Shown piece after piece: positions 4,698 to 30,419 of a stretch of 32,000 nucleotides of DNA (position 1 is its first letter; each line of letters starts with the position of its first letter). Below the pieces are notes generated by a model. It did not search any database. It saw nothing but the letters and a program-made list of their open reading frames with translations, and was not told the origin of the DNA. The stretch spans positions 1 to 32,000 of the forward strand of contig NZ_JAQFIQ010000028.1 of NCBI RefSeq assembly GCF_029504745.1. The letters run 5' to 3'. The stretch is from Breznakia sp. PF5-3 (GTDB lineage Bacteria > Bacillota_I > Bacilli_A > Erysipelotrichales > Erysipelotrichaceae). A program made the position numbers and the translations under genes.

Positions 4698-4713
4698 ATA
4701 AACATCACCAACC

Positions 4714-5637: not shown

Positions 5638-5640
5638 ACA

Positions 5641-6807: not shown

Positions 6808-6841
6808 ATATTCTCCTTTCTTTACTTACTATCATAATTTA

Positions 6842-6867
6842 GTCGCTTAAAAGCCTTTTAAGGTTCA
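6842..6867 (-). promoter_or_regulatory. ECF-type promoter candidate P3 (bactofilin-LRR-lepB operon)
   Basis: On the - strand: TGAACC-TTAAAAGGCTTTTAAG-CGAC (16-nt spacer), ending 34 nt upstream of ATG 6807. Same geometry as the motif upstream of the sigma gene. Confidence 0.55.
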
Positions 6868-7023
6868 CTATTTCCAGTATAAAGTGTATTTTTACCATCA
6901 TTTACCCGAAAAAGCTATGTTCTTTCATGCGAGTGCCCCATAATTATATTAGTCTCTATATACATTATAATATAATTTAAATTATTCGCCCAATCATATT
7001 ATCATTTATATTATAGGTTTTAA

Positions 7024-8457: not shown

Positions 8458-8520
8458 AATTTCTTCATTTCCCTCGCTTTCATATGTATTTTTGGATTTA
8501 TTTACATATATCAAAAGTAT

Positions 8521-8546
8521 GTCGCGCAAGTCCTAAAAAAGGTTTT
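8521..8546 (-). promoter_or_regulatory. weaker ECF-type promoter candidate P4 (446-aa gene)
   Basis: On the - strand: AAAACC-TTTTTTAGGACTTGCG-CGAC, followed by ATAC. It shares GACTTnnGCGnCATAC with the sigma-gene promoter, but its -35 is AAAACC rather than TGAACC. Confidence 0.35.
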
Positions 8547-8635
8547 CTTTTTTCTAAAAAAAGTTGTTTTTTTCATAATTGTTGAACACCTAGTACATAT
8601 ATTAATTTATCATGTTTTCTTTTTTCTTCTTATCG

Positions 8636-15200: not shown

Positions 15201-18200
15201 GTAGTCACTGTCAGTTACACTGTATTCTACTACATACATTCCTTTTTTCGATGTATCTACAGTTCCTGTTGATATTACTTTACTTGTAATATCTTTATCT
15301 TCTTCATCGTATGCACTAACTCCATATTTGTAGTCATATGCATCTCCAATATTTAAACTCATGAATTCTGGATTCACTGTTAATACTGGTGCATTTCCAT
15401 TAATTACAGTTACTTTAACTTTTACAGTTGTTGATGGATTTTCTTTCACTTGGAAAATAGCATAGTATGAAGTTGAAGTGGTATCAGTTCCGATATTTGC
15501 TTCTTTTACTTCTACTGCTACTGTACTAAAGTCTTTTACTTTCCATCCTTCTGCATTACCCCAATCAATTAAATTATTATTTGTATAATTTTCTGCTTGG
15601 CTTCTTGTAATTGTAATGTTATTTGCTCCAATTGCATAATGTTCTTCTGATGTTAATTCATCTTTTTTCATTACTTTAATTGTAATTGTTGCTTTTGTTG
15701 CTTTTTCTTCATCCACATAGAATGTTGCTGTATAAGTACCTTCAGCTGCCTTGAAATCTGTTGTTTCAAGTTTTACTGTTCCAGCACTCATATCATCACG
15801 ATTAATTGCTACAGCTTTTGATAACTCAATCAGCTTCGTATTGTCAGTGATTGCTTTCGCTTGCTCAACATTCATTACTAAGTTATTAGCTCCGATTGTA
15901 TATTTGCTTCCTGTTTCAATCACATGCTTATCGATTACTTTGATTTTAATCGTTGCTTTCGTTGCTTTTTCTTCATCTACATAGAATGTCGCTGTGTAGT
16001 CACCCTTAGCTGCTGTAAAGTTTGTTGTTTCAAGCTTTACTGTTCCTGCACTCATGTCTTTACGTTTGAATGCTTCTGCTTTTGATAACTCAATCAGTTT
16101 TGTATTGTCACTAATTGCTTTCGCTTCATCTAGTGTCATTACTAAGTTGTTTGCAACTAGTGTATATTTATCTCCGTGTTCAATGACATTTCCATCTTTT
16201 ACTTTGATCTTAATCGTTACTTTCGTCGCTTTTTCTTCATCCACATAGAATGTTGCTGTGTAGTCACCTTCTGCTGCCTTGAAGTTTGTTGTTTCAAGTT
16301 TTACTGTTCCAGCACTCATATCTTTACGTTTGAATGCTTCTGCTTTTGATAACTCAATCAGTTTCGTATTGTCACTAATTGCTTTCGCTTCATCTAGTGT
16401 CATTACTAAGTTGTTTGCTCCAATTGTATACTTATCTCCGTGTTCGATTACATCTTTATCAATTACTTTGATTTTTACTGTTACTTTCGTTGCTTTTTCT
16501 TCATCTACATAGAATGTTGCTGTATAGTCTCCCTTAGCTGCTGTAAAGTTTGTTGTTTCAAGTTTTACTGTTCCTTTGCTTAGGTCTTCTAACTTCCATG
16601 CTTCTGCTTTCGCTTTTTTAACTAACTCACTGTTGTCTGTCATCGCTTTCGCTTCATCGACTGTCATTACAATGTTGCTAGCTACTAGTGTATACTTGTC
16701 GCCTTCTTTGATTACATCGCCATCTACTACTTTCGCGATTGCTTTCACTTCATCTTTTGGATCCGTTGCCGCTTTCACTTTGATAACTACTTCATAATCT
16801 TTGACTTCTGCTTTATATCCACCATTGTCTTTCACCATCAAGTCTGCACTTGGTATTGGCAGTCCTGTTGCGATTGACCATGCTTTTGCTTCTGTCTTTT
16901 CTAAGATTTCAGCATCTGTTCCGGTTACATCATCTTTCAAGATTACATAGTTATGTAAGTCATATGCATAATCTTTTCCTACATACAATCCTACTGCTAC
17001 TACTCTTGATTTCTTAACTGTATTGTAGTCACTGTCAGTTACACTGTATTCTACTACATACATTCCTTTTTTCGATGTATCTACAGTTCCTGTTGATATT
17101 ACTTTACTTGTAATATCCTTATCTTCTTCATCGTATGCACTAACTCCATGTTTGTAGTCATATACATCCCCAATATTTAAACTCATGAATTCTGGATTCA
17201 CTGTTAATACTGGCGCATTTCCGTTCACTACTTTTACAGCTACACGAACTTCTGTTGCTGGTTCTTCTGCTACATAGAATGTAACATAGTATGTTCCTAC
17301 GGTTCCTTCAACATTGTGTGTTTTCACTTTTACAGTTCCTGCACTCATGTCTTTACGTTTGAACGCTTCTGCTTTTGTAAGATCAATCAATTGATCATTA
17401 GTAATACTTTCGGCAACACTTCTTGTGATTTCAATGTTGTTTGCTCCGATTGTATACTTATCTCCATGTTCGATTACATCTTTATCGATTACTTTGATTT
17501 TTACTGTTACTTTCGTTGCTTTTTCTTCATCCACATAGAATGTCGCTGTGTAGTCACCTTTCGCTGCTGTAAAGTTTGTTGTTTCAAGTTTTACTGTTCC
17601 TGCACTCATATCTTTACGTTTGAATGCTTCTGCTTTCGATAACTCAATCAGTTTCGTATTGTCACTAATTGCTTTCGCTTCATCTAGTGTCATTACTAAG
17701 TTATTTGCTCCGATTGTGTATTCATCTCCGTGTTCGATTACATCTTTATCGATTACTTTGATTTTAATCGTTGCCTTTGTTGCTTTTTCTTCATCTACAT
17801 AGAATGTCGCTGTGTAGTCACCTTTCGCTGCTGTAAAGTTTGTTGCTTCAAGTTTTACTGTTCCTGCACTCATGTCTTTACGTTTGAATGCTTCTGCTTT
17901 TGATAACTCAATTAATTTCGTATTGTCACTAACCGCTTTCGCTTCATCTAGTGTCATTACTAAGTTGTTAGCTCCGATTGTATACTTATCTCCGTGTTCG
18001 ATTACATCTTTATCGATTACTTTGATTTTTACTGTTACTTTCGTTGCTTTTTCTTCATCCACATAGAATGTTGCTGTGTAGTCTCCCTTAGCTGCTGTAA
18101 AGTTTGTTGTTTCAAGTTTTACTGTTCCTTTGCTTAGGTCTTCTAACTTCCATGCTTCTGCTTTCGCTTTTTTAACTAACTCATTGTTGTCTGTCATCGC

Positions 18201-21200
18201 TTTCGCTTCATCGACTGTCATTACAATGTTGCTAGCTACTAGTGTATACTTGTCGCCTTCTTTGATTACATCGCCATCTACTACTTTCGCAATTGCTTTC
18301 ACTTCATCTTTTGGATCTGTTGCTGCTTTTGCTTTGATAACTACTTCGTAATCTTTGACTTCTGCTTTATATCCACCATTGTCTTTTACCATGATTTCCG
18401 ATTGTGCAAGTTTTAAACCTGTTTTCGTTGACCATGCTTCTACTTCTGTCTTTTCTAAGATTTCAGCATCTGTTCCGGTTACATCATCTTTCAAGATTAC
18501 ATAGTTATGTAAGTCATATGCATAATCTTTTCCTACATACAATCCTACTGCTACTACTCTTGATTTCTTAACTGTATTGTAGTCACTGTCAGTTACACTG
18601 TATTCTACTACATACATTCCTTTTTTCGATGTATCTACAGTTCCTGTTGATATTACTTTACTTGTAATATCTTTATCTTCTTCATCGTATGCACTAACTC
18701 CATGTTTGTAGTCATATGCATCCCCAATATTTAAACTCATGAATTCTGGATTCACTGTTAATACTGGTGCATTTCCATTAATTACAGTTACTTTAACTTT
18801 TACAGTTGTTGATGGATGTTCTTTCACTTGGTAAACAACATAATAATCTGTTGAAGTAGTATCAGTTCCAATATTCGCTTCTTTCACTTCTACTGCTACT
18901 GTACTAAAGTCTTTTACTTTCCATCCTTCTGCATTACCCCAATTAATTAAATTATCATTTGTATAATTTTCTGCTTGGCTTCTTGTAATTGTAATGTTAT
19001 TTGCTCCAATTGCATAATGATCTTCTGATGTTAATTCATCTTTCTTCATTACTTTAATTGTAATTGTTGCTTTTGTATCTTTTTCTTCATCTACATAGAA
19101 TGTTGCTGTATAAGTACCTTCTGCTGCTTTGAAATCTGTTGTTTCAAGTTTTACTGTTCCTGCACTCATATCATCACGATTAATTGCTACAGCTTTTGAT
19201 AACTCAATCAGTTTTGTGTTGTCAGTGATTGCTTTCGCTTGCTCAACATTCATCACTAAGTTATTAGCTCCGATTGTATATTTGCTACCTGTTTCAATCA
19301 CATGCTTGTCGATTACTTTGATTTTAATCGTTGCTTTTGTTGCTTTTTCTTCATCTACATAGAATATCGCTGTATAGTCACCCTTAGCTGCTGTAAAGTT
19401 TGTTGTTTCAAGTTTTACTGTTCCTGCACTCATGTCTTTACGTTTGAATGCTTCTGCTTTTGATAACTCAATCAGTTTTGTATTGTCACTAATTGCTTTC
19501 GCTTCATCTAGTGTCATTACTAAGTTGTTTGCAACTAGTGTATATTTATCTCCGTGTTCAATGACATTTCCATCTTTTACTTTGATCTTAATAGTTACTT
19601 TCGTTGCTTTTTCTTCATCTACATAGAATGTTGCTGTGTAGTCACCTTCAGCTGCCTTGAAGTTTGTTGTTTCAAGTTTTACTGTTCCAGCACTCATATC
19701 TTTACGTTTGAATGCTTCTGCTTTTGATAACTCAATCAGTTTTGTATTGTCACTAATCGCTTTCGCTTCATCTAGTGTCATTACTAAGTTGTTTGCTCCG
19801 ATTGTATACTTATCTCCGTGTTCGATTACATCTTTATCGATTACTTTGATTTTTACTGTTACTTTCGTTGCTTTTTCTTCATCCACATAGAATGTCGCTG
19901 TATAGTCTCCCTTAGCTGCTGTAAAGTTTGTTGTTTCAAGTTTTACTGTTCCTTTGCTTAGGTCTTCTAACTTCCATGCTTCTGCTTTCGCTTTTTTAAC
20001 TAACTCACTGTTGTCTGTCATCGCTTTCGCTTCATCGACTGTCATTACAATGTTGCTAGCTACTAGTGTATACTTGTCGCCTTCTTTGATTACATCGCCA
20101 TCTACTACTTTCGCGATTGCTTTCACTTCATCTTTTGGATCCGTTGCTGCTTTCACTTTGATAACTACTTCGTAATCTTTGACTTCTGCTTTATATCCAC
20201 CATTGTCTTTCACCATCAAGTCTGCACTTGGTATTGGCAGTCCTGTTGCGATTGACCATGCTTTTGCTTCTGTCTTTTCTAAGATTTCAGCATCTGTTCC
20301 GGTTACATCATCTTTCAAGATTACATAGTTATGTAAGTCATATGCATAATCTTTTCCTACATACAATCCTACTGCTACTACTCTTGATTTCTTAACTGTA
20401 TTGTAGTCACTGTCAGTTACACTGTATTCTACTACATACATTCCTTTTTTCGATGTATCTACAGTTCCTGTTGATATTACTTTACTTGTAATATCTTTAT
20501 CTTCTTCATCATATGCACTAACTCCATGTTTGTAGTCATATGCATCCCCAATATTTAAACTCATGAATTCTGGATTCACTGTTAATACTGGTGCTTTTCC
20601 ATTAATTACGTTTACATCTACCGTTGCTTTTACACTTGGATCTGCATCTACCTTGAAAGTCGCTTTATATAATGATGCAACTCCCTTTACAGTATGTGTA
20701 TCTAAGGATACTGCTACTTCACTACGATCAGATCTCTTCCATCCTTTCGCACCTGTCAACGATTTTAATTCTGTCGCTGCATATGTTGCATTATCTTCGA
20801 TTTTCTTTGCTTCACCTAAGCGAATCTCAATATGGTTTGCTCCTATGATATATTCATCATTTACTTCTACTACATCATATGGTAATACTTCAAAGGTTAC
20901 TTCTTTTGTGATAGTTTCTTCTTTTCCTACACTAAAGACTACCTTATATTCTCCAGCTTCTGCTTTATATCCACCTTTTGATTTAACTTTTACAGGTGTT
21001 TCTGTACCTAAAGATGTATCGATTGCTTTCGCTTTCGCTAAATTAATAAAGTCTTGATCATCTACTACTAATTTAGCATTATCTAACCCGATGATTACAT
21101 CATTTGCACTAATCGTATATAACACTTTTTGAACAATCACTTTCGTTGCTGCTTTAAAAGTAGCATCGTGATAATCTTTTGTTGCTACTGGATTTTTATT

Positions 21201-23771
21201 TCCATTTGCATCTGTTAGGAAAATTTGAACTACATCATTTTCTTTTAATGTTGTTCCTGCAGGGAATGTATAATTCCAAGTATTATCATCATTAATTGTT
21301 CCTTCATTCCCCATTTCAACGCCGTTTAAAGTAACTGTTAATTTTACTGGCTTATCATTATTATGAATAGCATCCAATTCCCATGTTCCTTCTAGCTTAT
21401 TTCCATTTGTATATAATGTGTTTGTTACTGTTACTGGTAATGGAGGTGTTACATCACTTACCGTAACCTTGCCCACTAAAATATCTTCTGCATTCGCAAC
21501 ATGACGCTTTGAAGAAGTTGGATCTTCATCTCCACGCCAAGCTTCCAACACTTCATATGTTGAACCTGGTGTTAAAAATTCATTTAATGGAACTGTATAC
21601 ATCCCACCACGAGGTTCTTCACCATATACTGCTAATCCTGGATTATCATTATCTTTACCAATCGTTTTGGCATAATATGTATTTTGTGTTCCATCTGCTT
21701 TTACTTCTAAAATTTTCACATACACTTCATCTGTCCATGCATCCCTACCATTAAGATCTAAACCTTCTGGTACTCTTGCATGACCAAAAATACTCTTATC
21801 CGCATTTTCTGGGTTTCTCAACTCATCAATTATTGGTGTTGCATTATTTCCACTAATACGTGTATATCCTGCCATTCCTGTACTACCAAATGATGCTGCA
21901 CCACTATTGAAGTCAGGATCTGATGAATTTGCTATTGTAGTAAAGTTTTGACCCGTTAAACTATAGTCAATTAAAACCCAACTTTTCCATGGGTTACCAT
22001 CTACATTAGCTCCTTTTTTCCACACAGCTACATCTGAATTAATAGATTCTAGCTTTGAAGTTGATCCATTTGTTGTTCTAAATACACTTCCTCCACCAGA
22101 ACGGTTGTTTACAAAGTCATAATACAAAATATTTTCGGCATGAAAATCTAGATTTCTACCATTAATTACTGCTGCATCAGCTCCTGCTGTATTACCTTCA
22201 ACAATAAAGATTGCTCCATTTGTTGCATTAATGGTTGCATCAGAAGCATCCATATCCAAAGCACATCCATTTTCTGCAATAATTGATATTGCACTATTTT
22301 TACCATCTACTGAAAACGATGCAGATGATGCTGATTGATATTGAATAGCTTGGTTTCTTGCATCTGAGTTTCCATCCCTTGGTGTTCCATCACCTGCATT
22401 TTGAACTAATACCTGACTACCACCAGATACCTTAAATGCATTTCCATCTCCAAAGAAACGAATCGCTGGTGCGCGACTTCCTTCTTCTTTAACTATCTTT
22501 ACATTCGCTTGATTTGTTACATTAAAAGTTTGGTTACCAACATATCTAAATCGAATTGTTGCACCATAGGTATTATGACCATCTTTTGAGTATAAATTCA
22601 AATTTGATCCAGCACCATCTACGTTAAATTCTCCGCCTCCAGTAACCTGTTGAATAAGAGCTGGCATTGCTCCTTTACTGTTAACCGTTAAGCTTGAGCC
22701 TGAATTTACATAAATCCCTGATGCTTCATTTCCGGCAATCGTTGAACCACAAATAACAACAACTCCACCATCATCTCCACTTGAAGATCCTGTTGATTCA
22801 ATATTTACATGAGAATTATCTTCCACTTTAAATTGAACTCTATTTTGAGTAGTTGAACTTGAATTATTATTAGCAAAAATTGCTTGTTCAGTACCTGTAT
22901 TTATATTTAATGTTGAACCTCCTAATACCTCTAAACCTGTTACTGCTTTTGTACTTGCTACAGGATTTAGACGAATAAGTCCTGCACCAGTATTAGTACT
23001 CAAGTTTACAGTAGCTCCATCTTTAATATATATATAACGTGTATAAATCATTTCATTATAAGTACTTGTTGGCATTAGCCAATTCACTGTACCTGTAAAG
23101 TTAATAACACTGTTTCTTGCCGTTACTAACCTACTGTCACTACTTGATCCATTACTAACATTATGGAAATTAATATTCCAGTTAGCATCATCGGTTTCTG
23201 CAGCAACAACATAATTTGCTCCACTTCTTTGAATCACAATATTTGATAACGTAAATTGTGATGGCGTTGACGCCGTTGCTAACACGAAACTATTTCTTGT
23301 AACGGTTGTAAAATCTAGAGTGAACCCATTACCATCTATTATCAAATTACGATTGACTTCAGGCAAATCATTTGCTGATGCCGTACTACCATCTCTGGTA
23401 ATATGTTTCGTAAATTTAATATGAGAAACATTGCTATCGCTCATAGCAGCTTTTAAAGTAGTCCAATCGCTTACTTCAACTGTTGCTGCTCTTGGTTTCG
23501 CGTCAAAAGTAGAAACATCCTGTGGAGGCGTTTCTTCTTGTTCTGTTTCTTCACTTGTATCTTCTTCTTGAGGCTCTTCTTCAACCTCTGAAGGCTCTTC
23601 TACCTCTTCTTCTGGACTGACATCTTCTGTTATGACATCATCTGCATCAGCAGTTAATAACACATCGCCGACTAAAGATGATACACCTAAAGACGTAAAT
23701 GTCAGTAAAAAACAAAGCATAACTGTGAACAGTGTTTTCTGTTTTTTCCAGAAATTCTTCTTTTTACTCAT
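9246..23771 (-). CDS. giant (4,841 aa) modular cell-surface adhesin-like protein
   Basis: Uninterrupted 14,526-nt ORF with AGGAGGAGGG RBS.
- Signal peptide MSKKKNFWKKQKTLFTVMLCFLLTFTSLGVSSLVG.
- Acidic E/P/T linker.
- About 550 aa rich in N/G/S/T with beta-solenoid-like periodicity (pectate-lyase-like adhesive-domain pattern, e.g. VSDWTTLKAAMSDSNVSHIKF).
- Ig-like region.
- Then 6 DUF5011-like domains interleaved with 88-aa modules.
- Pro-rich stalk PGRKPSVTPPTVSKPS, then AVTTGD, a hydrophobic helix and KRKKEEEE. Confidence 0.95.
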   Translation of the reverse strand: MSKKKNFWKKQKTLFTVMLCFLLTFTSLGVSSLVGDVLLTADADDVITEDVSPEEEVEEPSEVEEEPQEEDTSEETEQEETPPQDVSTFDAKPRAATVEVSDWTTLKAAMSDSNVSHIKFTKHITRDGSTASANDLPEVNRNLIIDGNGFTLDFTTVTRNSFVLATASTPSQFTLSNIVIQRSGANYVVAAETDDANWNINFHNVSNGSSSDSRLVTARNSVINFTGTVNWLMPTSTYNEMIYTRYIYIKDGATVNLSTNTGAGLIRLNPVASTKAVTGLEVLGGSTLNINTGTEQAIFANNNSSSTTQNRVQFKVEDNSHVNIESTGSSSGDDGGVVVICGSTIAGNEASGIYVNSGSSLTVNSKGAMPALIQQVTGGGEFNVDGAGSNLNLYSKDGHNTYGATIRFRYVGNQTFNVTNQANVKIVKEEGSRAPAIRFFGDGNAFKVSGGSQVLVQNAGDGTPRDGNSDARNQAIQYQSASSASFSVDGKNSAISIIAENGCALDMDASDATINATNGAIFIVEGNTAGADAAVINGRNLDFHAENILYYDFVNNRSGGGSVFRTTNGSTSKLESINSDVAVWKKGANVDGNPWKSWVLIDYSLTGQNFTTIANSSDPDFNSGAASFGSTGMAGYTRISGNNATPIIDELRNPENADKSIFGHARVPEGLDLNGRDAWTDEVYVKILEVKADGTQNTYYAKTIGKDNDNPGLAVYGEEPRGGMYTVPLNEFLTPGSTYEVLEAWRGDEDPTSSKRHVANAEDILVGKVTVSDVTPPLPVTVTNTLYTNGNKLEGTWELDAIHNNDKPVKLTVTLNGVEMGNEGTINDDNTWNYTFPAGTTLKENDVVQIFLTDANGNKNPVATKDYHDATFKAATKVIVQKVLYTISANDVIIGLDNAKLVVDDQDFINLAKAKAIDTSLGTETPVKVKSKGGYKAEAGEYKVVFSVGKEETITKEVTFEVLPYDVVEVNDEYIIGANHIEIRLGEAKKIEDNATYAATELKSLTGAKGWKRSDRSEVAVSLDTHTVKGVASLYKATFKVDADPSVKATVDVNVINGKAPVLTVNPEFMSLNIGDAYDYKHGVSAYDEEDKDITSKVISTGTVDTSKKGMYVVEYSVTDSDYNTVKKSRVVAVGLYVGKDYAYDLHNYVILKDDVTGTDAEILEKTEAKAWSIATGLPIPSADLMVKDNGGYKAEVKDYEVVIKVKAATDPKDEVKAIAKVVDGDVIKEGDKYTLVASNIVMTVDEAKAMTDNSELVKKAKAEAWKLEDLSKGTVKLETTNFTAAKGDYTATFYVDEEKATKVTVKIKVIDKDVIEHGDKYTIGANNLVMTLDEAKAISDNTKLIELSKAEAFKRKDMSAGTVKLETTNFKAAEGDYTATFYVDEEKATKVTIKIKVKDGNVIEHGDKYTLVANNLVMTLDEAKAISDNTKLIELSKAEAFKRKDMSAGTVKLETTNFTAAKGDYTAIFYVDEEKATKATIKIKVIDKHVIETGSKYTIGANNLVMNVEQAKAITDNTKLIELSKAVAINRDDMSAGTVKLETTDFKAAEGTYTATFYVDEEKDTKATITIKVMKKDELTSEDHYAIGANNITITRSQAENYTNDNLINWGNAEGWKVKDFSTVAVEVKEANIGTDTTSTDYYVVYQVKEHPSTTVKVKVTVINGNAPVLTVNPEFMSLNIGDAYDYKHGVSAYDEEDKDITSKVISTGTVDTSKKGMYVVEYSVTDSDYNTVKKSRVVAVGLYVGKDYAYDLHNYVILKDDVTGTDAEILEKTEVEAWSTKTGLKLAQSEIMVKDNGGYKAEVKDYEVVIKAKAATDPKDEVKAIAKVVDGDVIKEGDKYTLVASNIVMTVDEAKAMTDNNELVKKAKAEAWKLEDLSKGTVKLETTNFTAAKGDYTATFYVDEEKATKVTVKIKVIDKDVIEHGDKYTIGANNLVMTLDEAKAVSDNTKLIELSKAEAFKRKDMSAGTVKLEATNFTAAKGDYTATFYVDEEKATKATIKIKVIDKDVIEHGDEYTIGANNLVMTLDEAKAISDNTKLIELSKAEAFKRKDMSAGTVKLETTNFTAAKGDYTATFYVDEEKATKVTVKIKVIDKDVIEHGDKYTIGANNIEITRSVAESITNDQLIDLTKAEAFKRKDMSAGTVKVKTHNVEGTVGTYYVTFYVAEEPATEVRVAVKVVNGNAPVLTVNPEFMSLNIGDVYDYKHGVSAYDEEDKDITSKVISTGTVDTSKKGMYVVEYSVTDSDYNTVKKSRVVAVGLYVGKDYAYDLHNYVILKDDVTGTDAEILEKTEAKAWSIATGLPIPSADLMVKDNGGYKAEVKDYEVVIKVKAATDPKDEVKAIAKVVDGDVIKEGDKYTLVASNIVMTVDEAKAMTDNSELVKKAKAEAWKLEDLSKGTVKLETTNFTAAKGDYTATFYVDEEKATKVTVKIKVIDKDVIEHGDKYTIGANNLVMTLDEAKAISDNTKLIELSKAEAFKRKDMSAGTVKLETTNFKAAEGDYTATFYVDEEKATKVTIKIKVKDGNVIEHGDKYTLVANNLVMTLDEAKAISDNTKLIELSKAEAFKRKDMSAGTVKLETTNFTAAKGDYTATFYVDEEKATKATIKIKVIDKHVIETGSKYTIGANNLVMNVEQAKAITDNTKLIELSKAVAINRDDMSAGTVKLETTDFKAAEGTYTATFYVDEEKATKATITIKVMKKDELTSEEHYAIGANNITITRSQAENYTNNNLIDWGNAEGWKVKDFSTVAVEVKEANIGTDTTSTSYYAIFQVKENPSTTVKVKVTVINGNAPVLTVNPEFMSLNIGDAYDYKYGVSAYDEEDKDITSKVISTGTVDTSKKGMYVVEYSVTDSDYNIVKKSRVVAVGLYVGKDYAYDLHNYVILKDDVTGTDAEILEKTEVEAWSTKTGLKLAQSEIMVKDNGGYKAEVKDYEVVIKAKAATDPKDEVKAIAKVVDGDVIKEGDKYTLVASNIVMTVDEAKAMTDNSELVGKAKAEAWKLEDLSKGTVKLETTNFAAAKGDYTATFYVDEEKATKATIKIKVIDKDVIEHGDKYTIGANNLVMTLDEAKAISDNTKLIELSKAEAFKRKDMSAGTVKLETTNFTAAKGDYTATFYVDEEKATKATIKIKVIDKDVIEHGDKYTIGANNIEITRSVAESITNDQLIDLTKAEAFKRKDMSVGTVKVKTHNVEGTVGTYYVTFYVAEEPATEVRVSVKVVNGNAPVLTVNPEFMSLNIGDTYDYKHGVSAYDEEDKDITSKVISTGTVDTSKKGMYVVEYSVTDSDYNTVKKSRVVAVGLYVGKDYAYDLHNYVILKDDVTGTDAEILEKTEAKAWSIATGLPVPSADLMVKDNGGYKAEVKDYEVVIKVKAATDPKDEVKAIAKVVDGDVIKEGDKYTLVASNIVMTVDEAKAVSDNTKLIELSKAEAWKLEDLSKGTVKLETTNFTAAKGDYTATFYVDEEKATKVTVKIKVIDKDVIEHGDKYTIGANNLVMTLDEAKAVSDNTKLIELSKAEAFKRKDMSAGTVKLETTNFKAAEGDYTATFYVDEEKATKVTIKIKVKDGNVIEHGDEYTIVANNLVMTLDEAKAVSDNTKLIELSKAEAFKRKDMSVGTVKLETTNFKAANGDYTATFYVDEEKATKAAIKIKVIDKDVIEHGDKYTIGANNLVMTVDEAKAITDNTKLIELSKAVAINRDDMSAGTVKLETTNFTAAKGDYTATFYVDEEKDTKATIKIKVIDKDVIEHGDKYTIGANNIEITRSVAESITNDQLIDLTKAEAFKRKDMSAGTVKVKTHNVEGTVGTYYVTFYVAEEPATEVRVAVKVVNGNAPVLTVNPEFMSLNIGDAYDYKHGVSAYDEEDKDITSKVISTGTVDTSKKGMYVVEYSVTDSDYNTVKKSRVVAVGLYVGKDYAYDLHNYVILKDDVTGTDAEILEKTEAKAWSIATGLPVPSADLMVKDNGGYKAEVKDYEVVIKVKAATDPKDEVKAIAKVVDGDVIKEGDKYTLVASNIVMTVDEAKAMTDNSELVKKAKAEAWKLEDLSKGTVKLETTNFTAAKGDYTATFYVDEEKATKVTVKIKVIDKDVIEHGDKYTIGANNLVMTLDEAKAISDNTKLIELSKAEAFKRKDMSAGTVKLETTDFTAAKGDYTATFYVDEEKATKVTIKIKVKDGNVIEHGDKYTLVANNLVMTLDEAKAISDNTKLIELSKAEAFKRKDMSVGTVKLETTNFTAAKGNYTATFYVDEEKDTKATIKIKVIDKDVIEHGDKYTIGANNLVMTLDEAKAITDNTKLIELSKAVAINRDDMSAGTVKLETTNFTAAKGDYTATFYVDEEKATKATIKIKVIDKDVIEHGDEYTIGANNLVMTLDEAKAISDNTKLIELSKAEAFKRKDMSAGTVKLETTNFKAAKGDYTATFYVDEEKATKATIKIKVIDKDVIEHGDEYTIGANNLVMTLEEAEAIKNNNELIKLSKAEAFKRKDMSAGTVKLETTNFKAAEGDYTATFYVDEEKDTKATIKIKVKDGNVIEHGDEYTIVANNLVMTLAEAEAISDNTKLIELSKAEAFKRKDMSAGTVKLETTDFKAAEGDYTATFYVDEEKDTKATIKIKVKAKDVIVKGDKYYIGANHITINSHTAETITNDQLIALTEAEAWLKKDLSSAKVEVESHNVIGEAGVYQVTFHVVKEPTTKVTVNVNVTKTALDITAKDFTISHAEASNMNEAKVLELSEADVIINSKTRALAPTKESIAVHQEHLRVVKGSTILGGVYDVKLSVEHEGVEYATVIKVTVTPGRKPSVTPPTVSKPSTAVTTGDDTNLNSLFAMGIISFMSVIYLVKRKKEEEE
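9400..21125 (-). repeat. in-frame coding repeat array: about 39 copies of an 88-aa (264-nt) module plus 6 DUF5011-like domains
   Basis: The canonical module is VIDKDVIEHGDKYTIGANNLVMTLDEAKAISDNTKLIELSKAEAFKRKDMSAGTVKLETTNFTAAKGDYTATFYVDEEKATKVTVKIK (24 close copies, 6 unit-terminal variants, 6 linker variants, 3 flanking divergent copies). DUF5011-like copies are anchored by the EFMSLN Met codons at 20564, 18740, 17186, 15362, 14072 and 12254. Their spacings are 1824, 1554, 1824, 1290 and 1818 nt. Confidence 0.9.
14070..20564 (-). repeat. near-identical higher-order tandem duplication (3,378-nt unit followed by a 3,114-nt unit)
   Basis: Antisense track ORFs at 15751, 16054, 16279 and 16576 are 100% identical in translation to those at 19129, 19432, 19657 and 19954. 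The offset is exactly 3,378 nt. The second unit is shorter by exactly 264 nt, which is one module. Confidence 0.9.
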
Positions 23772-23852
23772 TTAATACCCTCCTCCTATTGGCTTTTATT
23801 CAAGCAAATATCACACATATGAAAAATCAATTTTCATAATGAGTATCGGTAA

Positions 23853-23878
23853 GACGCATAAGTCAAAATTCAGGTTCA
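23853..23878 (-). promoter_or_regulatory. ECF-type promoter candidate P2 (giant adhesin gene)
   Basis: On the - strand: TGAACC-TGAATTTTGACTTATG-CGTC (16-nt spacer), followed by TTAC. Located 25 nt after the LRR-gene stop and about 80 nt upstream of ATG 23771. It shares TGAAC...TGACTTAnGCGTCnTAC with P1. Confidence 0.6.
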
Positions 23879-23903
23879 TTATTTTTTAAAAAAATTGAAA
23901 AAT

Positions 23904-26579
23904 TTATTGTAAACCTTCAAGATTGCGTTTTTTCCAAAATTTGCATAATAAACAGCCACTTAAACTAAGTAAAAATAAATTGAATTCTATCCTTTCACCA
24001 TGTCTATCTCCTGCGGAAACAACTGCCTTGCTAAGGGTTTCATTCTCACTTTGCATTGACTTGCTTTTTCCACCAGCGATACTCATAGCATTCTTCGCAT
24101 CAACAACCACCTCTACAGAAAGTTCACCTTCTATAGAATTCCCTGAATAGTCTTGTGCGATCGCTGAAAAAGTTAACTTAAAGACACCTCCTTCTATGTT
24201 GACTTCATTTATTTTTTTTAGTTGTTTTTCATTTACTTTTATAATATTGTCATTACTTTTTTCGTCCAGTTTATGATATATCTTAATTTCCGCTTCCCCA
24301 ATAGCATCTTCTGCTTGTAAAGCTTTCGCTTCATCATACGTCAGATGTATATTTCTACCTGAAATTATCATTTCCTCATTTGGTCCAATTGGATATGTAT
24401 TATTACCATAAACGGTTACTGTAACTTTTTTACTTACTTCATAGTTGTTTGCTTTTATTGTATATAGCAGTTCAAACACACCACCTTGTGATGATACATT
24501 TTTAATCTGCTGCCATTGTTCTTCATGTATGCCAATACTACTACCAACATCAGCAAATCCACTTATTTGTCCATCGGTTGTTCGTTTCATCAAAAATGAG
24601 CGAACGTTAGATTTACTTATTGCTTGACTCTTTGTTAAGCTTTGCACTTCATCATATGTAAATTGCAGATTATCTGCACCAATTACTAGATTTGATAAAC
24701 TATCCATAACACTATTTCTATTTGTTATTAATACTTGAATTGTTTTTGTTCCTTTTTTACCATCCTTATTTATTGCTTCATAATTAACATCATAGATTCC
24801 AATAGCATTAAATTCTGCATTCCCATTCTTAAGTGCATAATGAATATCATCATAATCAATTGCTTGTTTTATTGGTTCTGCACCAATAGTATCCTGTGCC
24901 TTTAACCAATATGCATCCACACGATTTCGAATACTATAATCTATATTCGTATTTCCCAGTTCATATTTTTGTGGTTTCGCAAGAATTACAGGCTGACCAT
25001 GAACTTTTATTTTTCTTTGATATGTTGCACTATAGCCTTCTGTATCTTCGATTGAATAGGTCACTTGATAAGTCCCTGCTTTTTTATTGTTAATATTCGT
25101 AGATGCAACCTCAACATCACTTGTAATATCATTTCCTAAGATATCGTATGCTTTCACATCTTTCATCAAATCATATGTATCGCCTACGTATAATTCTATG
25201 TCATTTGCTGTAAAGCTTGGTTCTTCCCACCAAATAATCGGTTGGGTTACTTCTCCAACATACCATGTATCATCACCAAAATAATTTAATGAATATTGAT
25301 AAACATCATCGGCAGTTGGATCTAGTGTTAATTCAATTGATTCATATGTTTGTCCATCTATTGTCATTGGAATTGTATTCCCATAACGATCTTTCACAAT
25401 TGATGTAACTATAACCTTTCCAGTTGCTTTATCACCAATTAATGAAGTCTCATTTGTATAGCGTTGACCCTGATTATTGTTTGGATCTTGATATGGATCT
25501 GCATCAGAATTATGTCTTACATAAACAACAGCAGAAACATTCGCTAACGCTGATAAATCCGTAACATGATTGTTATTAAGCCAAATTGCTGCATTTCCAT
25601 TTGTAGTAATTGTTGCTAATGGTGATATATCCGTAATATTGTTATTAGATAACTGCAATATATTAATCTTTGTAAGATTTGATAAAGGCGTGATATCGGT
25701 AATATTGTTATGATTTAATATAAGTCGCTTAGCATCTGTATAATGTTCAAAAATACTAATATCTGTAATATTGTTATTTTGAAAATGAAATACTACTTCT
25801 GGAATACAATCTGTTATTGGCAAAGTATTTAAATCATCATCATCAATGCCATTATTATTAAACATAATTTGCTCATCCAAATTTGGAAACCTAGAAGCTG
25901 TTAAAATTGAAAAATCATGAATCTCATTGGTTCCTGTGTTCCAATTATTAAATTCCATCTGAGATAAATATGGATAAACAGTATTGCGCATTGGCTCTAA
26001 ACTTTTAATATTGTGATCATTCAAATAAATATAACGTAGTGAAGTCATATACTCAATCCCTTGAAGATCACGAATACGTTTAGTAGGATTATTTTCAATA
26101 TAATAAATACTATCTACCTGTCCCAAATCCTCGATTGTGAAATTGCTATCTAAACCCTTTTCAAACACTAGGTAATTATAAAAGTTAATATCTGGAACAA
26201 GATCAATCCCTGTAGCAGCACGAGTAGAAATTTGCTTTTGGATTTCTGTAATTTGAATTTCTTGTGTTGCCTTAGTTACCTTATTATCCATTTCATAAGT
26301 AATTGTTAAAGTATATACACCATTTTCTTCAATGATAATAGTAGGATCATTTATATCTAAAATAGTATCTTCAAATACAAGTTCACGAATTCCATATGTT
26401 TGTATTGCTTCTTTCGAGATGTTAATCTTAGCTCTTTGATTATGCAACTCATAGAAAGTAGTATATGTTAACGTAAAATTCTCATCTGCATCAGCTTCAT
26501 TTAAAAGTACAAAACAACTAATTAGTAAATATGAAAACACGATACATATAAATTTTACAAAATTTTGTTTATACCTCAT
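23904..26579 (-). CDS. internalin-like LRR surface protein (891 aa from ATG 26579)
   Basis: Signal peptide MRYKQNFVKFICIVFSYLLISCFVLLNEADA with GAAGG RBS. About 22-aa LRRs (LILNHNNITDITPLSNLTKINILQLSNNNITDISPLATI...LNNNHVTDLSALANV). A DUF5011/Big-like domain (FTANDIELYVGDTYDLMKDVKAYDILGNDITSDVEVASTNINNKKAGTYQVTYSIED). Two modules related to the giant protein's 88-aa module. The C-terminus is VVSAGD plus a hydrophobic segment plus KKRN. Confidence 0.8.
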   Translation of the reverse strand: MRYKQNFVKFICIVFSYLLISCFVLLNEADADENFTLTYTTFYELHNQRAKINISKEAIQTYGIRELVFEDTILDINDPTIIIEENGVYTLTITYEMDNKVTKATQEIQITEIQKQISTRAATGIDLVPDINFYNYLVFEKGLDSNFTIEDLGQVDSIYYIENNPTKRIRDLQGIEYMTSLRYIYLNDHNIKSLEPMRNTVYPYLSQMEFNNWNTGTNEIHDFSILTASRFPNLDEQIMFNNNGIDDDDLNTLPITDCIPEVVFHFQNNNITDISIFEHYTDAKRLILNHNNITDITPLSNLTKINILQLSNNNITDISPLATITTNGNAAIWLNNNHVTDLSALANVSAVVYVRHNSDADPYQDPNNNQGQRYTNETSLIGDKATGKVIVTSIVKDRYGNTIPMTIDGQTYESIELTLDPTADDVYQYSLNYFGDDTWYVGEVTQPIIWWEEPSFTANDIELYVGDTYDLMKDVKAYDILGNDITSDVEVASTNINNKKAGTYQVTYSIEDTEGYSATYQRKIKVHGQPVILAKPQKYELGNTNIDYSIRNRVDAYWLKAQDTIGAEPIKQAIDYDDIHYALKNGNAEFNAIGIYDVNYEAINKDGKKGTKTIQVLITNRNSVMDSLSNLVIGADNLQFTYDEVQSLTKSQAISKSNVRSFLMKRTTDGQISGFADVGSSIGIHEEQWQQIKNVSSQGGVFELLYTIKANNYEVSKKVTVTVYGNNTYPIGPNEEMIISGRNIHLTYDEAKALQAEDAIGEAEIKIYHKLDEKSNDNIIKVNEKQLKKINEVNIEGGVFKLTFSAIAQDYSGNSIEGELSVEVVVDAKNAMSIAGGKSKSMQSENETLSKAVVSAGDRHGERIEFNLFLLSLSGCLLCKFWKKRNLEGLQ

Positions 26580-27759
26580 TACGCACAACCTTCTTTCTCT
26601 TTTGATAGTATAGATAAATAAGTACAATCAATAATGATATAATAAATGGAATTGCACTAATCAACAGTTTGAATGGAAAAGATTTTTCGGCATTAATTTT
26701 AAGTTTAGTAAAAAAATCAATATAGAATCTCTCAGGCGAAGAAACTATTTTACTATCATATTCTGTGTATATACTTCCTTCAATGATTTTATCCACACGA
26801 TAGGATAATCCTGATTTTGATATTTCATCCTTTTGGTACAATGCATACACAACTGTATCCTCTGTGATATCATGCAAATCTTCCGACCACCCTAAAAATG
26901 TATTATTATTTTTCTTCGGTCCTGCAATGGCTTCACCATCATCTCCATAATTTACAAAAGTTTGATAATAAAGTTCATTATCTACATAATATGAAACACG
27001 ATATTGCTTAATCACAAATGTAGCATATAAATTCATTGATTTTTTTATCTTTTCGCCATTATAAAAAAAACCTTTTCCATCTAACTGTGTATTAAAGCCA
27101 AGAAAACGATATCCTTTTTTCGAAACAAGTGGAGTATCTACTACTTGATTATTTTTCACCTTTATTTGTTTCAACAATATCGTTCCATCATAGAAATTAA
27201 CTGTATGAGTTGTATTATTGAATCCAAACTTTCCTCGAAACGCATGTTCATAGGTTTCGCTTTTATCACCCATGGTAATTTCACTAGATAATATTTTCAT
27301 ATCTACACTGATTTTATCTCGTGAAGACCCGATTGTCATAACTTCTAAATCATAAGTTGTTTTCGTACTATTTAAAGCAATCGCTTTTCCATTATTGAGA
27401 TAAGAAGTATATTCATCCTGTGAAGCATTACGACCATTAATTTTTAATACTCCCTTATAATAATCTTTAAATTTGATACCTTCTTTTTCTATAAATAAAA
27501 TTTTAGAGTCAACCACTCCTGAATGATTCACTACATTCATTGTAATTTTAACAGTTGATCCATAAGGAACATCTGTAGTACTCTCTAGGCTATATGCCTG
27601 TCCTGAAGCAGATATTACTTTAGCACTTGAAGATAGTGACAAATCAAAGTAAACCTCTTTTGCTTCCACGCTAAAAATACCAGTGAGTAAACTAAACACC
27701 ACTGATATCGTTAACACTGCAAATGTTACTACCTTTCTTATTGTCCCTGTCTTATTCAT
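26569..27759 (-). CDS. membrane protein with two InlB-B / Listeria-Bacteroides (Flg_new) repeats (396 aa from ATG 27759)
   Basis: Signal peptide MNKTGTIRKVVTFAVLTISVVFSLLTGIFSVEA. HTVNFYDG...KKGYRFLGFNTQLDGKG...NLYATF and YRVSYYVDNE...NNTFLGWSEDLHDITEDTVVYALY fit the repeat pattern. C-terminal TM helix plus QKRKK. The alternative TTG start at 27777 lacks an SD. The stop overlaps the next ATG by 11 nt. Confidence 0.75.
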   Translation of the reverse strand: MNKTGTIRKVVTFAVLTISVVFSLLTGIFSVEAKEVYFDLSLSSSAKVISASGQAYSLESTTDVPYGSTVKITMNVVNHSGVVDSKILFIEKEGIKFKDYYKGVLKINGRNASQDEYTSYLNNGKAIALNSTKTTYDLEVMTIGSSRDKISVDMKILSSEITMGDKSETYEHAFRGKFGFNNTTHTVNFYDGTILLKQIKVKNNQVVDTPLVSKKGYRFLGFNTQLDGKGFFYNGEKIKKSMNLYATFVIKQYRVSYYVDNELYYQTFVNYGDDGEAIAGPKKNNNTFLGWSEDLHDITEDTVVYALYQKDEISKSGLSYRVDKIIEGSIYTEYDSKIVSSPERFYIDFFTKLKINAEKSFPFKLLISAIPFIISLLIVLIYLYYQKRKKVVRNEV

Positions 27760-27766
27760 ATTCGCC

Positions 27767-29086
27767 CTAACTTTCAATATTCACTATATAAGAAATCATA
27801 TTTCCTGATTTATCATAAATAGTTACATAAACCTCTCCTTCAAATTCTTTTTTTATTTCGCCATTTTTTGGAATTGCTATTTTCTCTTCTTTATACAAAA
27901 TATAAGATGAAGCATAATTTAGCCCTAAACCTTCATCTTTTAATTTGACTGATAAAGTTCCATCTTCATAACCAATATCAACCATCTCTGGTGCTTTTTT
28001 ATCAATATTGTCAATCGATATTTTTTGAATATCCTCAGCAACTTTGATTGTATAATCACCATTTCTTTCAACTTGGAATGATAAAACATCATTCTGGATA
28101 TCAAAAGCAATCGCTTCCTTTCCTTGTTTTACATTAACTTTAGATTTCTCAACATTCTTATTTAACTTTGCTTTTACTTCAATTTTCTTATTTGTTGGTT
28201 CTTGATAATAACTTATATCTAGAATTTGTGGTGTCTCTGTATTCAAGTTTTGATATACCACATAACTTCCTGCAGCTCCTAATCCAAGGATTCCTACAAG
28301 TGCCGCTTTTGCTATATCAGATATAAAATTACCTCCTATCGCCGCTGCTGGAACAACCACAGATGCGGCATTGGATCCAGAATGAATAATTTTGTTATAG
28401 ATTTCAGTCGCTCCACTCGTAGACATCTTATTTTTTTGAATAATGTCAGCAAACAATCGATATGCGAATGGGGTAAACGTAAACCCGAAATACTTAGCTG
28501 GAGAATATCCTCGTTCTGCTAATCCAGGTTTAATAACTTTCCTAATTCTTCTAAGTCTTGTTTTTACTGTACCTTCTGGTATCTTTAGTATATAGGCAAT
28601 CTCATTAATTGATAGCCCTTCATAATACTTCAACATCCCGACTTCAAAAAACTTATCAGAAAGTTGATTAAGTTCTGATTTAATCGCATCATAAACTTCT
28701 TTACTTTCTACTTCGTGTACTTGATCATTATCAACACGAATAATTTCTTCTAAATTTGTCTCTTCGTTTAAATCAACTTGTTTTGATCGTTTACGGTAAA
28801 GCGATTGTGAACGATTAAACGCAATCGTGAAAAGCCAAGAATGAAAAGCTTTATTAGACTTTAAAACTTGGATATTTTCAAATACATTCACAAATGTTTC
28901 CTGTACAATTTCTTCTGCATCTGCTGCATTCTTCATCAACTTCAAACCAAAGTAATAAATCGAGTCCCGATAAAAATCATATATCACATTAAATGCTTCA
29001 ATATCACCATTACGAAAACGTTCGATATATTCAACATCGATTTCTCTTCGATTTCCTGTTTTTTTATACTCTTTCTTGGATTTCAT
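27767..29086 (-). CDS. ECF-type sigma-70 family factor fused to a TM segment and a C-terminal extracytoplasmic domain (439 aa)
   Basis: Region 2 at aa ~25-98 (AEEIVQETFVNVFENI..., FHSWLFTIAFNRSQSLYRKR). Region 4 at aa ~138-187 (LSINEIAYILKIPEGTVKTRLRRIRKVI). Hydrophobic segment at aa ~241-278 (IAKAALVGILGLGAAGSYVVY). A beta-rich tail of 160 aa follows. No region 3 and no stop codon between the parts. Confidence 0.85.
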   Translation of the reverse strand: MKSKKEYKKTGNRREIDVEYIERFRNGDIEAFNVIYDFYRDSIYYFGLKLMKNAADAEEIVQETFVNVFENIQVLKSNKAFHSWLFTIAFNRSQSLYRKRSKQVDLNEETNLEEIIRVDNDQVHEVESKEVYDAIKSELNQLSDKFFEVGMLKYYEGLSINEIAYILKIPEGTVKTRLRRIRKVIKPGLAERGYSPAKYFGFTFTPFAYRLFADIIQKNKMSTSGATEIYNKIIHSGSNAASVVVPAAAIGGNFISDIAKAALVGILGLGAAGSYVVYQNLNTETPQILDISYYQEPTNKKIEVKAKLNKNVEKSKVNVKQGKEAIAFDIQNDVLSFQVERNGDYTIKVAEDIQKISIDNIDKKAPEMVDIGYEDGTLSVKLKDEGLGLNYASSYILYKEEKIAIPKNGEIKKEFEGEVYVTIYDKSGNMISYIVNIES

Positions 29087-29115
29087 AAAGTATCGCCCCC
29101 ATCCACTTCATGTAT

Positions 29116-29141
29116 GACGCTTAAGTCAGCGAAAAAGTTCA
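29116..29141 (-). promoter_or_regulatory. ECF-type promoter candidate P1 (autoregulatory, sigma operon)
   Basis: On the - strand: TGAACT-TTTTCGCTGACTTAAG-CGTC (16-nt spacer), followed by ATAC, ending 29 nt upstream of ATG 29086. It lies directly downstream of the terminator that insulates it from grcA. Confidence 0.6.
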
Positions 29142-29179
29142 CTTTCTTCATACTATTTATAACAAAAATACTTACTTAT

Positions 29180-29230
29180 AATAAAAAATGTTGTAACTTG
29201 CTATTTTTTCGTAATGAATTACAACATTTT
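29180..29230 (-). terminator. rho-independent terminator after the GrcA-like gene
   Basis: AAAATGTTGTAA (29185-29196) pairs with TTACAACATTTT (29219-29230). On the - strand the stem runs into TTTTTTATTAT. Confidence 0.7.
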
Positions 29231-29237
29231 CCTTAAT

Positions 29238-29471
29238 TTACATACCTGCATGCATAGTACGATGTATTACATCATCTTGCTGTTCTTTGGTAAGTTTATT
29301 AAAATTCACAGCATATCCAGATACTCGAATTGTTAATTGAGGATACTTCTCTGGATTTTTTTGAGCATCTAATAATATTTCTCGATTAAATACATTTACA
29401 TTCAAATGATGCCCACCACTTGCTGCATATCCATCAATCATTGTTACCAAATTACTAATACGATCTTTCAT
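29238..29471 (-). CDS. grcA: autonomous glycyl-radical cofactor (GrcA/YfiD-like), 77 aa
   Basis: [54 protein letters not shown] is collinear with the C-terminal glycyl-radical segment of pyruvate formate-lyase, including the RVSGYAV radical-Gly motif. Confidence 0.85.
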
Positions 29472-29552
29472 AAGTATACCAACCTTTCTATTGCTTATAC
29501 CTATGTATAATATAACGCATCTATGTTGTAATGATAAACTATTTGCCCAGAA

Positions 29553-30407: not shown

Positions 30408-30419
30408 AAGTTGATCCTC

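Follow-up and report, generated by a model that had tools for sequence, protein, structure and literature searches.

The gap of 132 nt in front of the largest gene of a surface-protein cluster in Breznakia sp. PF5-3 (contig NZ_JAQFIQ010000028.1, positions 1 to 32,000; this 32,000-nt stretch is referred to here as the window) contains a sequence, P_giant (23880..23849, minus strand), that is very probably a promoter read by RNA polymerase carrying the extracytoplasmic function (ECF) sigma factor encoded in the same cluster, at 29086..27767. A closely similar sequence, P_sig, lies upstream of the sigma gene itself and is presumed, from its position, to be the autoregulatory promoter of the sigma operon. 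The first-pass annotation of this DNA had proposed an ECF-type promoter before the giant gene matching that of the sigma gene, and this proposal is now supported by conservation, an independent weight matrix and co-variation across homologous modules. Breznakia is an insect-gut member of the Erysipelotrichales for which we know of no genetics so far. All coordinates are window positions and every relevant gene is on the minus strand. The features on which the argument depends are as follows.

23880..23849, minus strand: P_giant, AATGAACCTGAATTTTGACTTATGCGTCTTAC, the reverse complement of 23849-23880, inside the 132-nt gap
29143..29112, minus strand: P_sig, AGTGAACTTTTTCGCTGACTTAAGCGTCATAC, the reverse complement of 29112-29143, in front of the sigma gene
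27767..29086, minus strand: ECF sigma factor of 439 aa (Pfam, TIGR02937, AlphaFold2, Foldseek, hydropathy)
26569..27777, minus strand: membrane/surface protein of 402 aa (annotated by NCBI with 396 aa), with a Flg_new repeat and a C-terminal transmembrane (TM) anchor
23904..26627, minus strand: internalin-like surface protein, open reading frame (ORF) of 907 aa (891 aa in the NCBI gene call), with leucine-rich repeat (LRR) and immunoglobulin (Ig)-like domains
23772-23903: intergenic gap of 132 nt from the LRR gene (stop codon at 23904) to the giant gene (ATG at 23771)
9246..23771, minus strand: giant repetitive surface protein of 4841 aa, encoded by 14,526 nt

Both 32-mers quoted in the first-pass annotation are present at 23849-23880 and 29112-29143, as reverse complements, and the gap has the length that was given for it, from the stop codon at 23904 to the ATG at 23771; the number of matching positions between the two 32-mers, first counted as 20 of 32, is 22 of 32 on recounting. 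P_giant consists of a -35 element, TGAAC (23878..23874), a 17-nt spacer and a -10 block, CGTCTTAC (23856..23849), and P_sig of TGAAC (29141..29137), a 17-nt spacer and CGTCATAC (29119..29112), its 3' end lying 25 nt ahead of the sigma ATG (29086). ECF promoters have been described as having a conserved AAC at -35, a group-specific -10 and, often, a contributing T-tract adjoining the -35 element (PMC5758882). P_giant (TGAAC-N17-CGTCTTAC) follows this rule, with AAC in the -35 block, a CGT-type -10 and the fixed spacing of about 16-17 nt, and a T-rich stretch follows the -35 element at both window sites, a T-richness also seen in the matrix described below (columns 10-13). Transcription from P_giant is predicted to start near 23846-23842, giving a 5' untranslated region (UTR) of about 72-75 nt. 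The block TGACTTANGCGTCNTAC occurs twice in the window, only at P_giant and P_sig; it is expected 0.01 times, and none of 100 shuffled sequences contained two copies. The looser pattern GAAC-N15-19-CGTC also has exactly two matches in the window, P_giant and P_sig, both with N17 and both on the coding strand.

Relatives of the sigma factor were collected by protein search, which yielded 17 more full-length sequences of 420-450 aa with 29-59% identity over at least 94% of the query, the majority of them from Breznakia and metagenomes. The comparison loci were the contigs of these relatives plus L003, from a Coprobacillaceae metagenome-assembled genome; ten modules, with the window included, were compared for paired sites. 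L003 came from a pattern scan of a genome collection with the full sigma alignment (generic region-2 peptide patterns), in which at least 79 other loci proved to be unrelated ECF loci. The order sigma factor, Flg_new-type protein of about 390-480 aa, (LRR protein) and very large surface protein recurs in L083, L085, L086, L089, L097 and L003, with shortened forms of the module in L091, L093 and L095; across modules, the Flg_new-repeat gene is invariably the next gene after that of the sigma factor, and no regulator gene other than the sigma gene is conserved in the modules compared. The sigma factors of these modules are about 30-59% identical, and all ten modules have (T)GAAC-N17-xxxCTAAx upstream of the sigma operon and again directly upstream of the large surface gene. 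Each of these 20 sites is unique within its own locus, with exactly 17 nt from AAC to the 8-mer. Besides the window, the loci with an internal site before the large surface gene are L083, L085, L086, L089, L091, L093, L095, L097 and L003. In the comparison of the gap between strains, a check suggested in the first-pass annotation, the sole other record of the window species, L002, is identical to the window over the 5.6 kb compared (23701-29300) and is therefore uninformative on conservation.

A 31-nt weight matrix was built from the 18 sites of the nine other loci, with zero window sites, and used to scan both strands of the window (about 64,000 positions). P_giant ranked first (24.2 bits) and P_sig second (19.8 bits), the next match scoring 14.3 bits; among 500 random windows generated by a first-order Markov model, 24.2 bits was reached in none and 19.8 bits in 0.8%. 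The sites had first been picked by eye, a choice that needed a control, and every locus was therefore also scanned, on both strands, with a matrix from which that locus had been left out. Both sites were the top two in five of the ten loci (window, L083, L086, L089 and L091); they ranked second and third in L085 and L093, behind another intergenic coding-strand site of the same type, and first and third in L095. With the full matrix, 28 of the 31 matches scoring at least 12.5 bits in 13 loci were intergenic, on the coding strand and upstream of a gene, and the sites found in this way that had not been used for training (in L085, L093, L098, L099 and L100) were all intergenic and correctly oriented. 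The motif is asymmetric, is always on the coding strand and has its 3' end 3-150 nt upstream of the earliest possible start codon of the next long ORF.

The two sites of a module also resemble each other more closely than they resemble the sites of other modules. The -10 blocks of the paired sites illustrate this.

Window: CGTCATAC / CGTCTTAC, i.e. CGTC(T/A)TAC
L085: CGTCTTAC at both sites
L086: CAACTAAT at both sites
L089: CGTCTAAC / TATCTAAC
L091: TGTCTAAT / TGTCTAAA
L093: TGTCTAAA / AGTCTAAA, i.e. (T/A)GTCTAAA
L097: GAACTAAT / GAACTAAC, with GAACTAA in both

When identity within and between modules was compared by permuting partners, the mean for the -35 block was 6.3/8 within modules and 5.1/8 between them (p = 0.003), and that for the -10 block was 7.6/10 within and 5.7/10 between (p = 0.0003), whereas similarity of the spacer was barely higher within modules than between them (p = 0.05). 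As the -10 block varies between modules and agrees within each, promoter and sigma factor appear to co-vary across modules. Such agreement is what would be expected if each sigma factor read both sites of its own module, and it argues against a shared, unrelated regulator. Inspection by eye of the alignment of the sigma2 loop preceding the FHSW motif gave no clear rule linking its residues to the -10 variants. These data also bear on the idea that the shared block is not a -35/-10 pair at all, but an operator, with TGACTTAnGCGTC as the candidate bound sequence, of a DNA-binding repressor or activator controlling both units. Identity between the window sites does run into the spacer (TGACTTA before GCGTC), which is unusual for a purely bipartite promoter, and a similar GACTT is found in a third site (8547..8517, described below); but across modules just two blocks are conserved, at a fixed 17 nt, the spacer hardly differs within and between modules, the motif has the orientation and placement of a promoter together with the canonical ECF signature AAC ... 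CGTC, and the sigma gene is the only regulator gene conserved in the module. An operator is accordingly given very little probability.

Several observations weigh against the reading of P_giant as a promoter of the adjacent sigma factor. Two matches to GAAC-N15-19-CGTC are not rare by count, as 30 of 100 shuffled sequences gave at least two. The leave-one-out scan is weak for L097, in which the sites rank first and sixth, and fails for L003, in which they score 3-5 bits and the -35 block is TCAAAC. The choice of sites by eye in the other loci may have inflated the similarity within pairs, for which the leave-one-out scan compensates in part. The two further candidate sites of the window, 6868..6838 and 8547..8517, are not significant on score alone. 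Finally, Breznakia genomes carry paralogous sigma factors of the same family with similar motifs (P0004 and P0017), so a paralogue could also read P_giant.

The first of these points would fit a chance match or a non-functional relic in A+T-rich DNA, the giant gene then being expressed only by read-through from the sigma promoter or from an unrecognised sigma-A promoter; read-through is possible with no terminator between the LRR and giant genes, and promoters of the extended -10 kind can escape a simple sigma-70 scan. Against this stand the scarcity of the 17-mer shared by the two sites, the first and second ranks of these sites with an independent matrix at scores of which the higher was never reached in random windows, and the retention of a paired site at 30-59% protein identity, even in loci with a terminator before the internal site. 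A chance match is regarded as very unlikely. The last point concerns the identity of the reader: P_giant may be a real ECF-type promoter used mainly by another ECF sigma factor of the same genome, either a paralogue of the family or a SigW/SigM-like housekeeping ECF. Several fused-sigma paralogues do exist in Breznakia genomes (P0004 and P0017 in GCA_029504775.1), the sites of the L095 paralogue, AAAC-N17-CGTC(C/T), resemble those of the window, and CGTC promoters in B. subtilis are read by more than one ECF sigma factor (PMC5758882). However, both promoter blocks, -35 and -10, co-vary across modules with the sigma factor encoded next to them, each internal site matches the sigma-upstream site of its own module (e.g. 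CAACTAAT at both sites of L086 and GAACTAA at both of L097), and the synteny of sigma factor and target is kept in all modules, all of which makes a different main reader improbable.

The 439-aa protein is an ECF (group 4) sigma-70 family factor. In Pfam it matches Sigma70_r2 (44.3 bits, cut-off 24), Sigma70_r4_2 (35.1 bits, cut-off 25.7) and Sigma70_ECF (28.3 bits, cut-off 21.1), and it exceeds the cut-off of the curated ECF model TIGR02937 (NCBIfam sigma70-ECF; 85.8 against 42.9); sigma regions 1 and 3 gave no Pfam match at E <= 0.01. The sigma2 and sigma4 domains (residues ~18-190) are followed by a helical linker, one TM helix (~254-280) and a pair of Ig-like beta domains (288-439). A model computed with AlphaFold2 from 18 sequences (mean predicted local distance difference test score, pLDDT, 68) has the short linker between sigma2, the helices of which end at about residue 103, and sigma4, which begins at about residue 121; residues 196-283 are helical but poorly defined (pLDDT <50), and the all-beta part, 288-439, is confident (pLDDT ~90). 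The only strongly hydrophobic stretch is that of residues 254-280 (19-mer, mean Kyte-Doolittle 1.66). In a Foldseek search of the PDB, the N-terminal part was closest to B. subtilis SigW (5wuq; E = 1e-8, 33% identity), with AlgU, SigH, RpoE and SigL also among the matches, and the C-terminal part matched tandem Ig-like domains. The SigW equivalog models NF007223 and TIGR02948 scored best but below their cut-offs (114.5 against 209 and 104.8 against 243.1 bits), so the protein does not qualify as a SigW orthologue. No anti-sigma domain of the ZAS, RskA or FecR type was matched by Pfam between sigma4 and the TM helix at E <= 0.01, a search that a divergent domain could escape.

The C-terminal 249 residues, compared with 1.84 billion representative sequences, matched 98 proteins, nearly all 415-465 aa long and matching at ~180-440; this near-uniformity of length and position points to a coherent sigma-TM-Ig fusion family. 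A metagenome pattern scan with the C-terminal extension (5 sequences) gave 600 pattern matches, none of them a relative. Breznakia sp. assembly GCA_029504715.1 (contig JAQFIO010000027) encodes an identical sigma protein, and the NCBI cluster name is "unclassified Breznakia". The Ig-like unit of the ectodomain recurs as 6-15 repeats in giant proteins encoded elsewhere: P0043 (4494 aa), P0093 (2438 aa), P0111 (1632 aa) and P0130 (3035 aa). Homology of the ectodomain to domains of the adhesins presumed to be under its control was considered and rejected, as BLASTP against the giant, LRR and Flg_new proteins of the window found nothing significant; a profile comparison with the N-terminus of the LRR protein reached just 12% probability. 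In one subclade (L091 9504-9857, L093 8586-8930, L098 2916-3251 and L099 3065-3403), a conserved ORF of 111-117 aa resembling sigma region 4 (..MPVKYKxxALLWYFEExT..DIxNILNIPEEIVEIRIxKVES..) is located upstream of the sigma gene, and the best promoter match of each such locus (19.8-23.2 bits) precedes this ORF; the window has no equivalent.

The first-pass annotation had also described the gap as having neither a terminator nor a convincing sigma-A promoter, and both descriptions hold: a pattern scan of 23772-23903 found no terminator-like site, and a consensus scan found no sigma-70-type match on the minus strand there, the nearest such match (23973..23945) lying within the LRR gene. The sole hairpin between the LRR stop codon and P_giant is a weak one of A/T pairs (-5.9 kcal/mol). 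Given the lack of a terminator in the gap, read-through from the sigma promoter into the giant gene is plausible in the window. There, as in the closer relatives of the window, the stop codon of the upstream gene is either overlapped by the internal site or at most 42 nt ahead of its start, and the intervening hairpins are all weak A/T ones; in L091 and L093, by contrast, a strong G+C hairpin with a T-run precedes the internal site (-26.5 and -19.2 kcal/mol, respectively, for the folded segment), and the big gene there must depend on the internal site. As this site is present with or without such a hairpin, the internal promoter seems to be kept whether or not read-through is possible.

A riboswitch or leader RNA in the gap was also considered. 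The gap RNA has no stable structure and folds no better than shuffled sequences (z = -0.16), and an Rfam scan of the whole window matched no family; this reading was dropped on both grounds. GTGTG(A/G)T, considered as a possible conserved element in the 5' UTR of the giant genes, is present in the window, L083, L085 and L003 and absent from L086, L089 and L097. Near P_sig, at 29151-29158 on the minus strand, TGTTATAAA resembles an extended -10 element (TGnTATAAT, one mismatch); the ECF -35 block of the sigma gene follows some 10 nt downstream. It could provide basal, sigma-A-dependent expression of the sigma factor, and it may be a chance match in DNA this rich in A+T.

Both paired sites predicted in the first-pass annotation are thus present, but the number of such sites in the window is probably four rather than two. 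The two additional candidates and the genes that they precede are the following.

8517..8547, minus strand: candidate promoter GAAAACCTTTTTTAGGACTTGCGCGACATAC, with the probable ATG of the secreted 449-470-aa protein some 50-60 nt downstream
7117..8466, minus strand: secreted protein of 449-470 aa
6838..6868, minus strand: candidate promoter GTGAACCTTAAAAGGCTTTTAAGCGACTAAA, ending 30 nt upstream of the bactofilin gene
4128..6807, minus strand: co-oriented trio encoding a protein with a bactofilin domain (388 aa), an LRR_5 protein of the BspA type (307 aa) and a signal peptidase I of family S26 (189 aa)

The site at 6868..6838 is the third-best match to the independent matrix in the window (14.3 bits, 0.25 expected by chance) and that at 8547..8517 the fourth-best (12.1 bits, about 1.0 expected); the latter is intergenic, on the coding strand and located after a terminator-like hairpin. 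Both fall within the ~3.5% of positions that are on the coding strand and at most 150 nt upstream of a gene start (estimated as ~15 genes x 150 nt / 64,000), in which about 0.03 chance matches are to be expected, against the two observed. In L083, a 20.8-bit site precedes the homologous bactofilin gene at the position matching 6868..6838, and the operon there encodes the bactofilin, a 306-aa protein, the S26 peptidase, the sigma factor, the Flg_new protein, the LRR protein and the giant protein. The upstream placement of both extra sites and the strong bactofilin site of L083 make it likely that the sigma factor has a regulon of about four promoters in the window, including that of the bactofilin/LRR/signal-peptidase operon, with the two extra sites as candidates. 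The link of the S26 peptidase to this regulon, through one weak window site and one strong L083 site, is likewise a candidate.

The genes for the bactofilin-domain protein, the ~300-aa protein (of LRR_5 type in the window) and the S26 signal peptidase I accompany the sigma/adhesin module (window 4128-6807, L083 7283-9955, L097 173-2488). They are found downstream of it in the window; in L083 they are upstream and share its orientation, and in L097 they are divergent. A promoter-type site of the same kind precedes them in the window and L083. The domains of the trio in the window were assigned with Pfam, and the peptidase scores 113.9 with TIGR02227 (cut-off 47). A further strong site, ATGAACTATTTTTCCCTTTTGTGCGACATAC (20.8 bits), is found at 116-146 of L085, 200 nt upstream of the L085 sigma promoter with no ORF between, and its -10 block, GCGACATAC, is identical to that of the window candidate 8547..8517.

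The gene order 5' to 3' on the minus strand is as follows.

Start: three DegV genes, a 77-aa glycyl-radical (GrcA-like) gene and a 151-nt gap
Continued: sigma factor, Flg_new protein, LRR protein, the 132-nt gap and the giant protein
End: a 151-aa lipoprotein, the 449-470-aa secreted protein and the bactofilin / LRR_5 / S26 signal peptidase I trio

The three tandem DegV-family genes and the stand-alone glycyl-radical domain protein (GrcA/YfiD-like) occupy 29238-31973 on the minus strand, directly upstream of the sigma operon, from which they are separated by an A/T-rich hairpin with a T-run at ~29226..29176. The Flg_new (Listeria-Bacteroides repeat) match in the 402-aa protein scores 25 bits in Pfam, slightly under the cut-off of 27, and the 907-aa protein matches Pfam LRR_4 and Bact_surface_Ig-like, internalin models scoring under their cut-offs. 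The 4841-aa protein begins with a signal peptide and includes a pectate-lyase-like region and Ig-like repeats; at its C-terminus are a TM segment and a basic tail. Its gene (9246-23771, minus strand) encodes long near-identical repeats, with blocks of several hundred residues recurring four to five times with few substitutions, so collapse or expansion in assembly and variation in length from strain to strain are likely. The C-termini of the surface proteins carry a common motif, after which come a hydrophobic segment and a basic tail (window genes on the minus strand); the motif takes the form AVTTGDD in the giant protein (9246-9400), AVVSAGD in the LRR protein (23904-24020), ATVAAGD in L083 (~14900-14958) and ASVAAGD in L086 (~15040-15104), and looks like a C-terminal sorting signal other than LPXTG.

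From these sequences, we infer a transcription start at P_giant, its reading by the adjacent sigma factor, read-through into the giant gene and a mechanism of activation, which can be combined as follows. The sigma factor would recognise the near-identical promoter before its own gene (29143..29112), such that, once active, it would raise its own synthesis and that of the two surface proteins encoded downstream. As the gap has no terminator, transcripts from the sigma promoter could, in principle, enter the giant gene, and the sigma factor would independently raise transcription of this 14.5-kb gene through the internal promoter, topping up a very long, distal and probably poorly processive message. 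It may also drive two more units, the secreted 449-470-aa protein and the bactofilin/LRR/signal-peptidase operon. A single polypeptide with cytoplasmic sigma2 and sigma4 domains, one membrane helix and an extracytoplasmic pair of Ig-like domains makes proteolytic release the most likely form of control: regulated proteolysis would detach the sigma part from the membrane, on the pattern of known sigma/anti-sigma hybrids. A more speculative extension, which we consider rather unlikely as a whole, is that the 439-aa protein senses an event at the surface (contact or the state of the adhesin layer), is released by proteolysis, perhaps aided by the co-regulated S26 peptidase in the manner of the cleavage of RsiV by signal peptidase, and drives a giant-adhesin regulon of about four promoters with positive feedback, paralogous modules having diverged in the first three -10 bases (CGT, CAA, GAA, TGT) so that insulated sigma/promoter pairs coexist in one genome. 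If this is true, the Erysipelotrichales would possess a naturally occurring set of ECF switches that are orthogonal to one another.

In principle, the arrangement is familiar: that an ECF sigma factor controls its own gene from one promoter and a neighbouring target from another that matches it is textbook knowledge and standard ECF design. What goes beyond routine is the conservation of the module across a family of membrane-anchored sigma factors, the difference in -10 specificity from one module to the next and the probable extension of the regulon to the bactofilin/LRR/signal-peptidase operon. The analysis provides a regulatory map for a 25-kb surface-protein cluster in Breznakia, in which about four promoters would answer to one sigma factor and a giant adhesin would be the main output, and a promoter code, (T)GAAC-N17-xxxCTAAx, for the sigma-TM-Ig fusion family. 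The module-specific -10 variants may serve as natural examples of shifts in ECF specificity, of practical interest for orthogonal expression switches. A literature search for Erysipelotrichales together with ECF sigma factors and adhesins found no paper, and with it no description of this fusion family (about 100 representative clusters).

ECF sigma factors usually autoregulate and are encoded beside their targets, and their promoters are routinely predicted from the region upstream of the sigma gene (PMC7826278). In B. subtilis, the -10 element is CGTA for SigW, CGTC for SigM and SigX, and CGAC for the SigX autoregulatory promoter (PMC5758882). The window sites resemble these promoters (tGAAAC-N16-17-CGTA/CGTC/CGAC) in having AAC at -35, CGTC at -10 and a T-rich stretch after the -35 element, with one copy before the sigma gene and more before the targets. 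The sigma2-sigma4 part is also closest to SigW by sequence and fold, but the protein remains under the SigW equivalog cut-offs, the -10 block of the family is longer (xxxCTAAx), with first three bases that vary by module, and the targets are giant adhesin-like proteins rather than envelope-stress or detoxification genes. The promoters of E. coli sigma-E (RpoE) have the form GGAACTT-N16-TCnAA. The family sites share with them GAAC followed by a T/C-rich stretch at -35 and a -10, GTCTAA, resembling the TCAAA/TCTGA type, and RpoE structures are among the best fold matches of the window sigma factor; RpoE differs in phylum, in regulon and in its regulation by a separate anti-sigma factor, RseA. 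In B. subtilis, tapA-sipW-tasA combines the genes for matrix proteins with that for SipW, a dedicated signal peptidase of the archaeal/ER type that processes them. The S26 signal peptidase I gene of the window is similarly linked to, and perhaps co-regulated with, genes for large secreted or surface proteins; unlike SipW, the peptidase matches the bacterial type (TIGR02227).

The closest parallels in architecture are ECF sigma factors fused to a membrane-spanning C-terminal extension, such as IutY of Pseudomonas putida (ECF243) and SCO4117 of Streptomyces coelicolor (ECF52), for which proteolytic activation is thought to occur or has been shown (PMC8999054). Like these, the window protein combines, in one polypeptide, an N-terminal ECF sigma factor, a TM segment and an extracytoplasmic C-terminal domain, with no recognisable separate anti-sigma gene. 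It is not placed in their groups because its linker has no detected zinc-finger or other anti-sigma domain, its ectodomain consists of two Ig-like domains rather than being FecR-like or carbohydrate-binding, and its host belongs to another lineage, the Erysipelotrichales (Bacillota). By analogy with IutY and SCO4117, it nonetheless probably works as these hybrids do.

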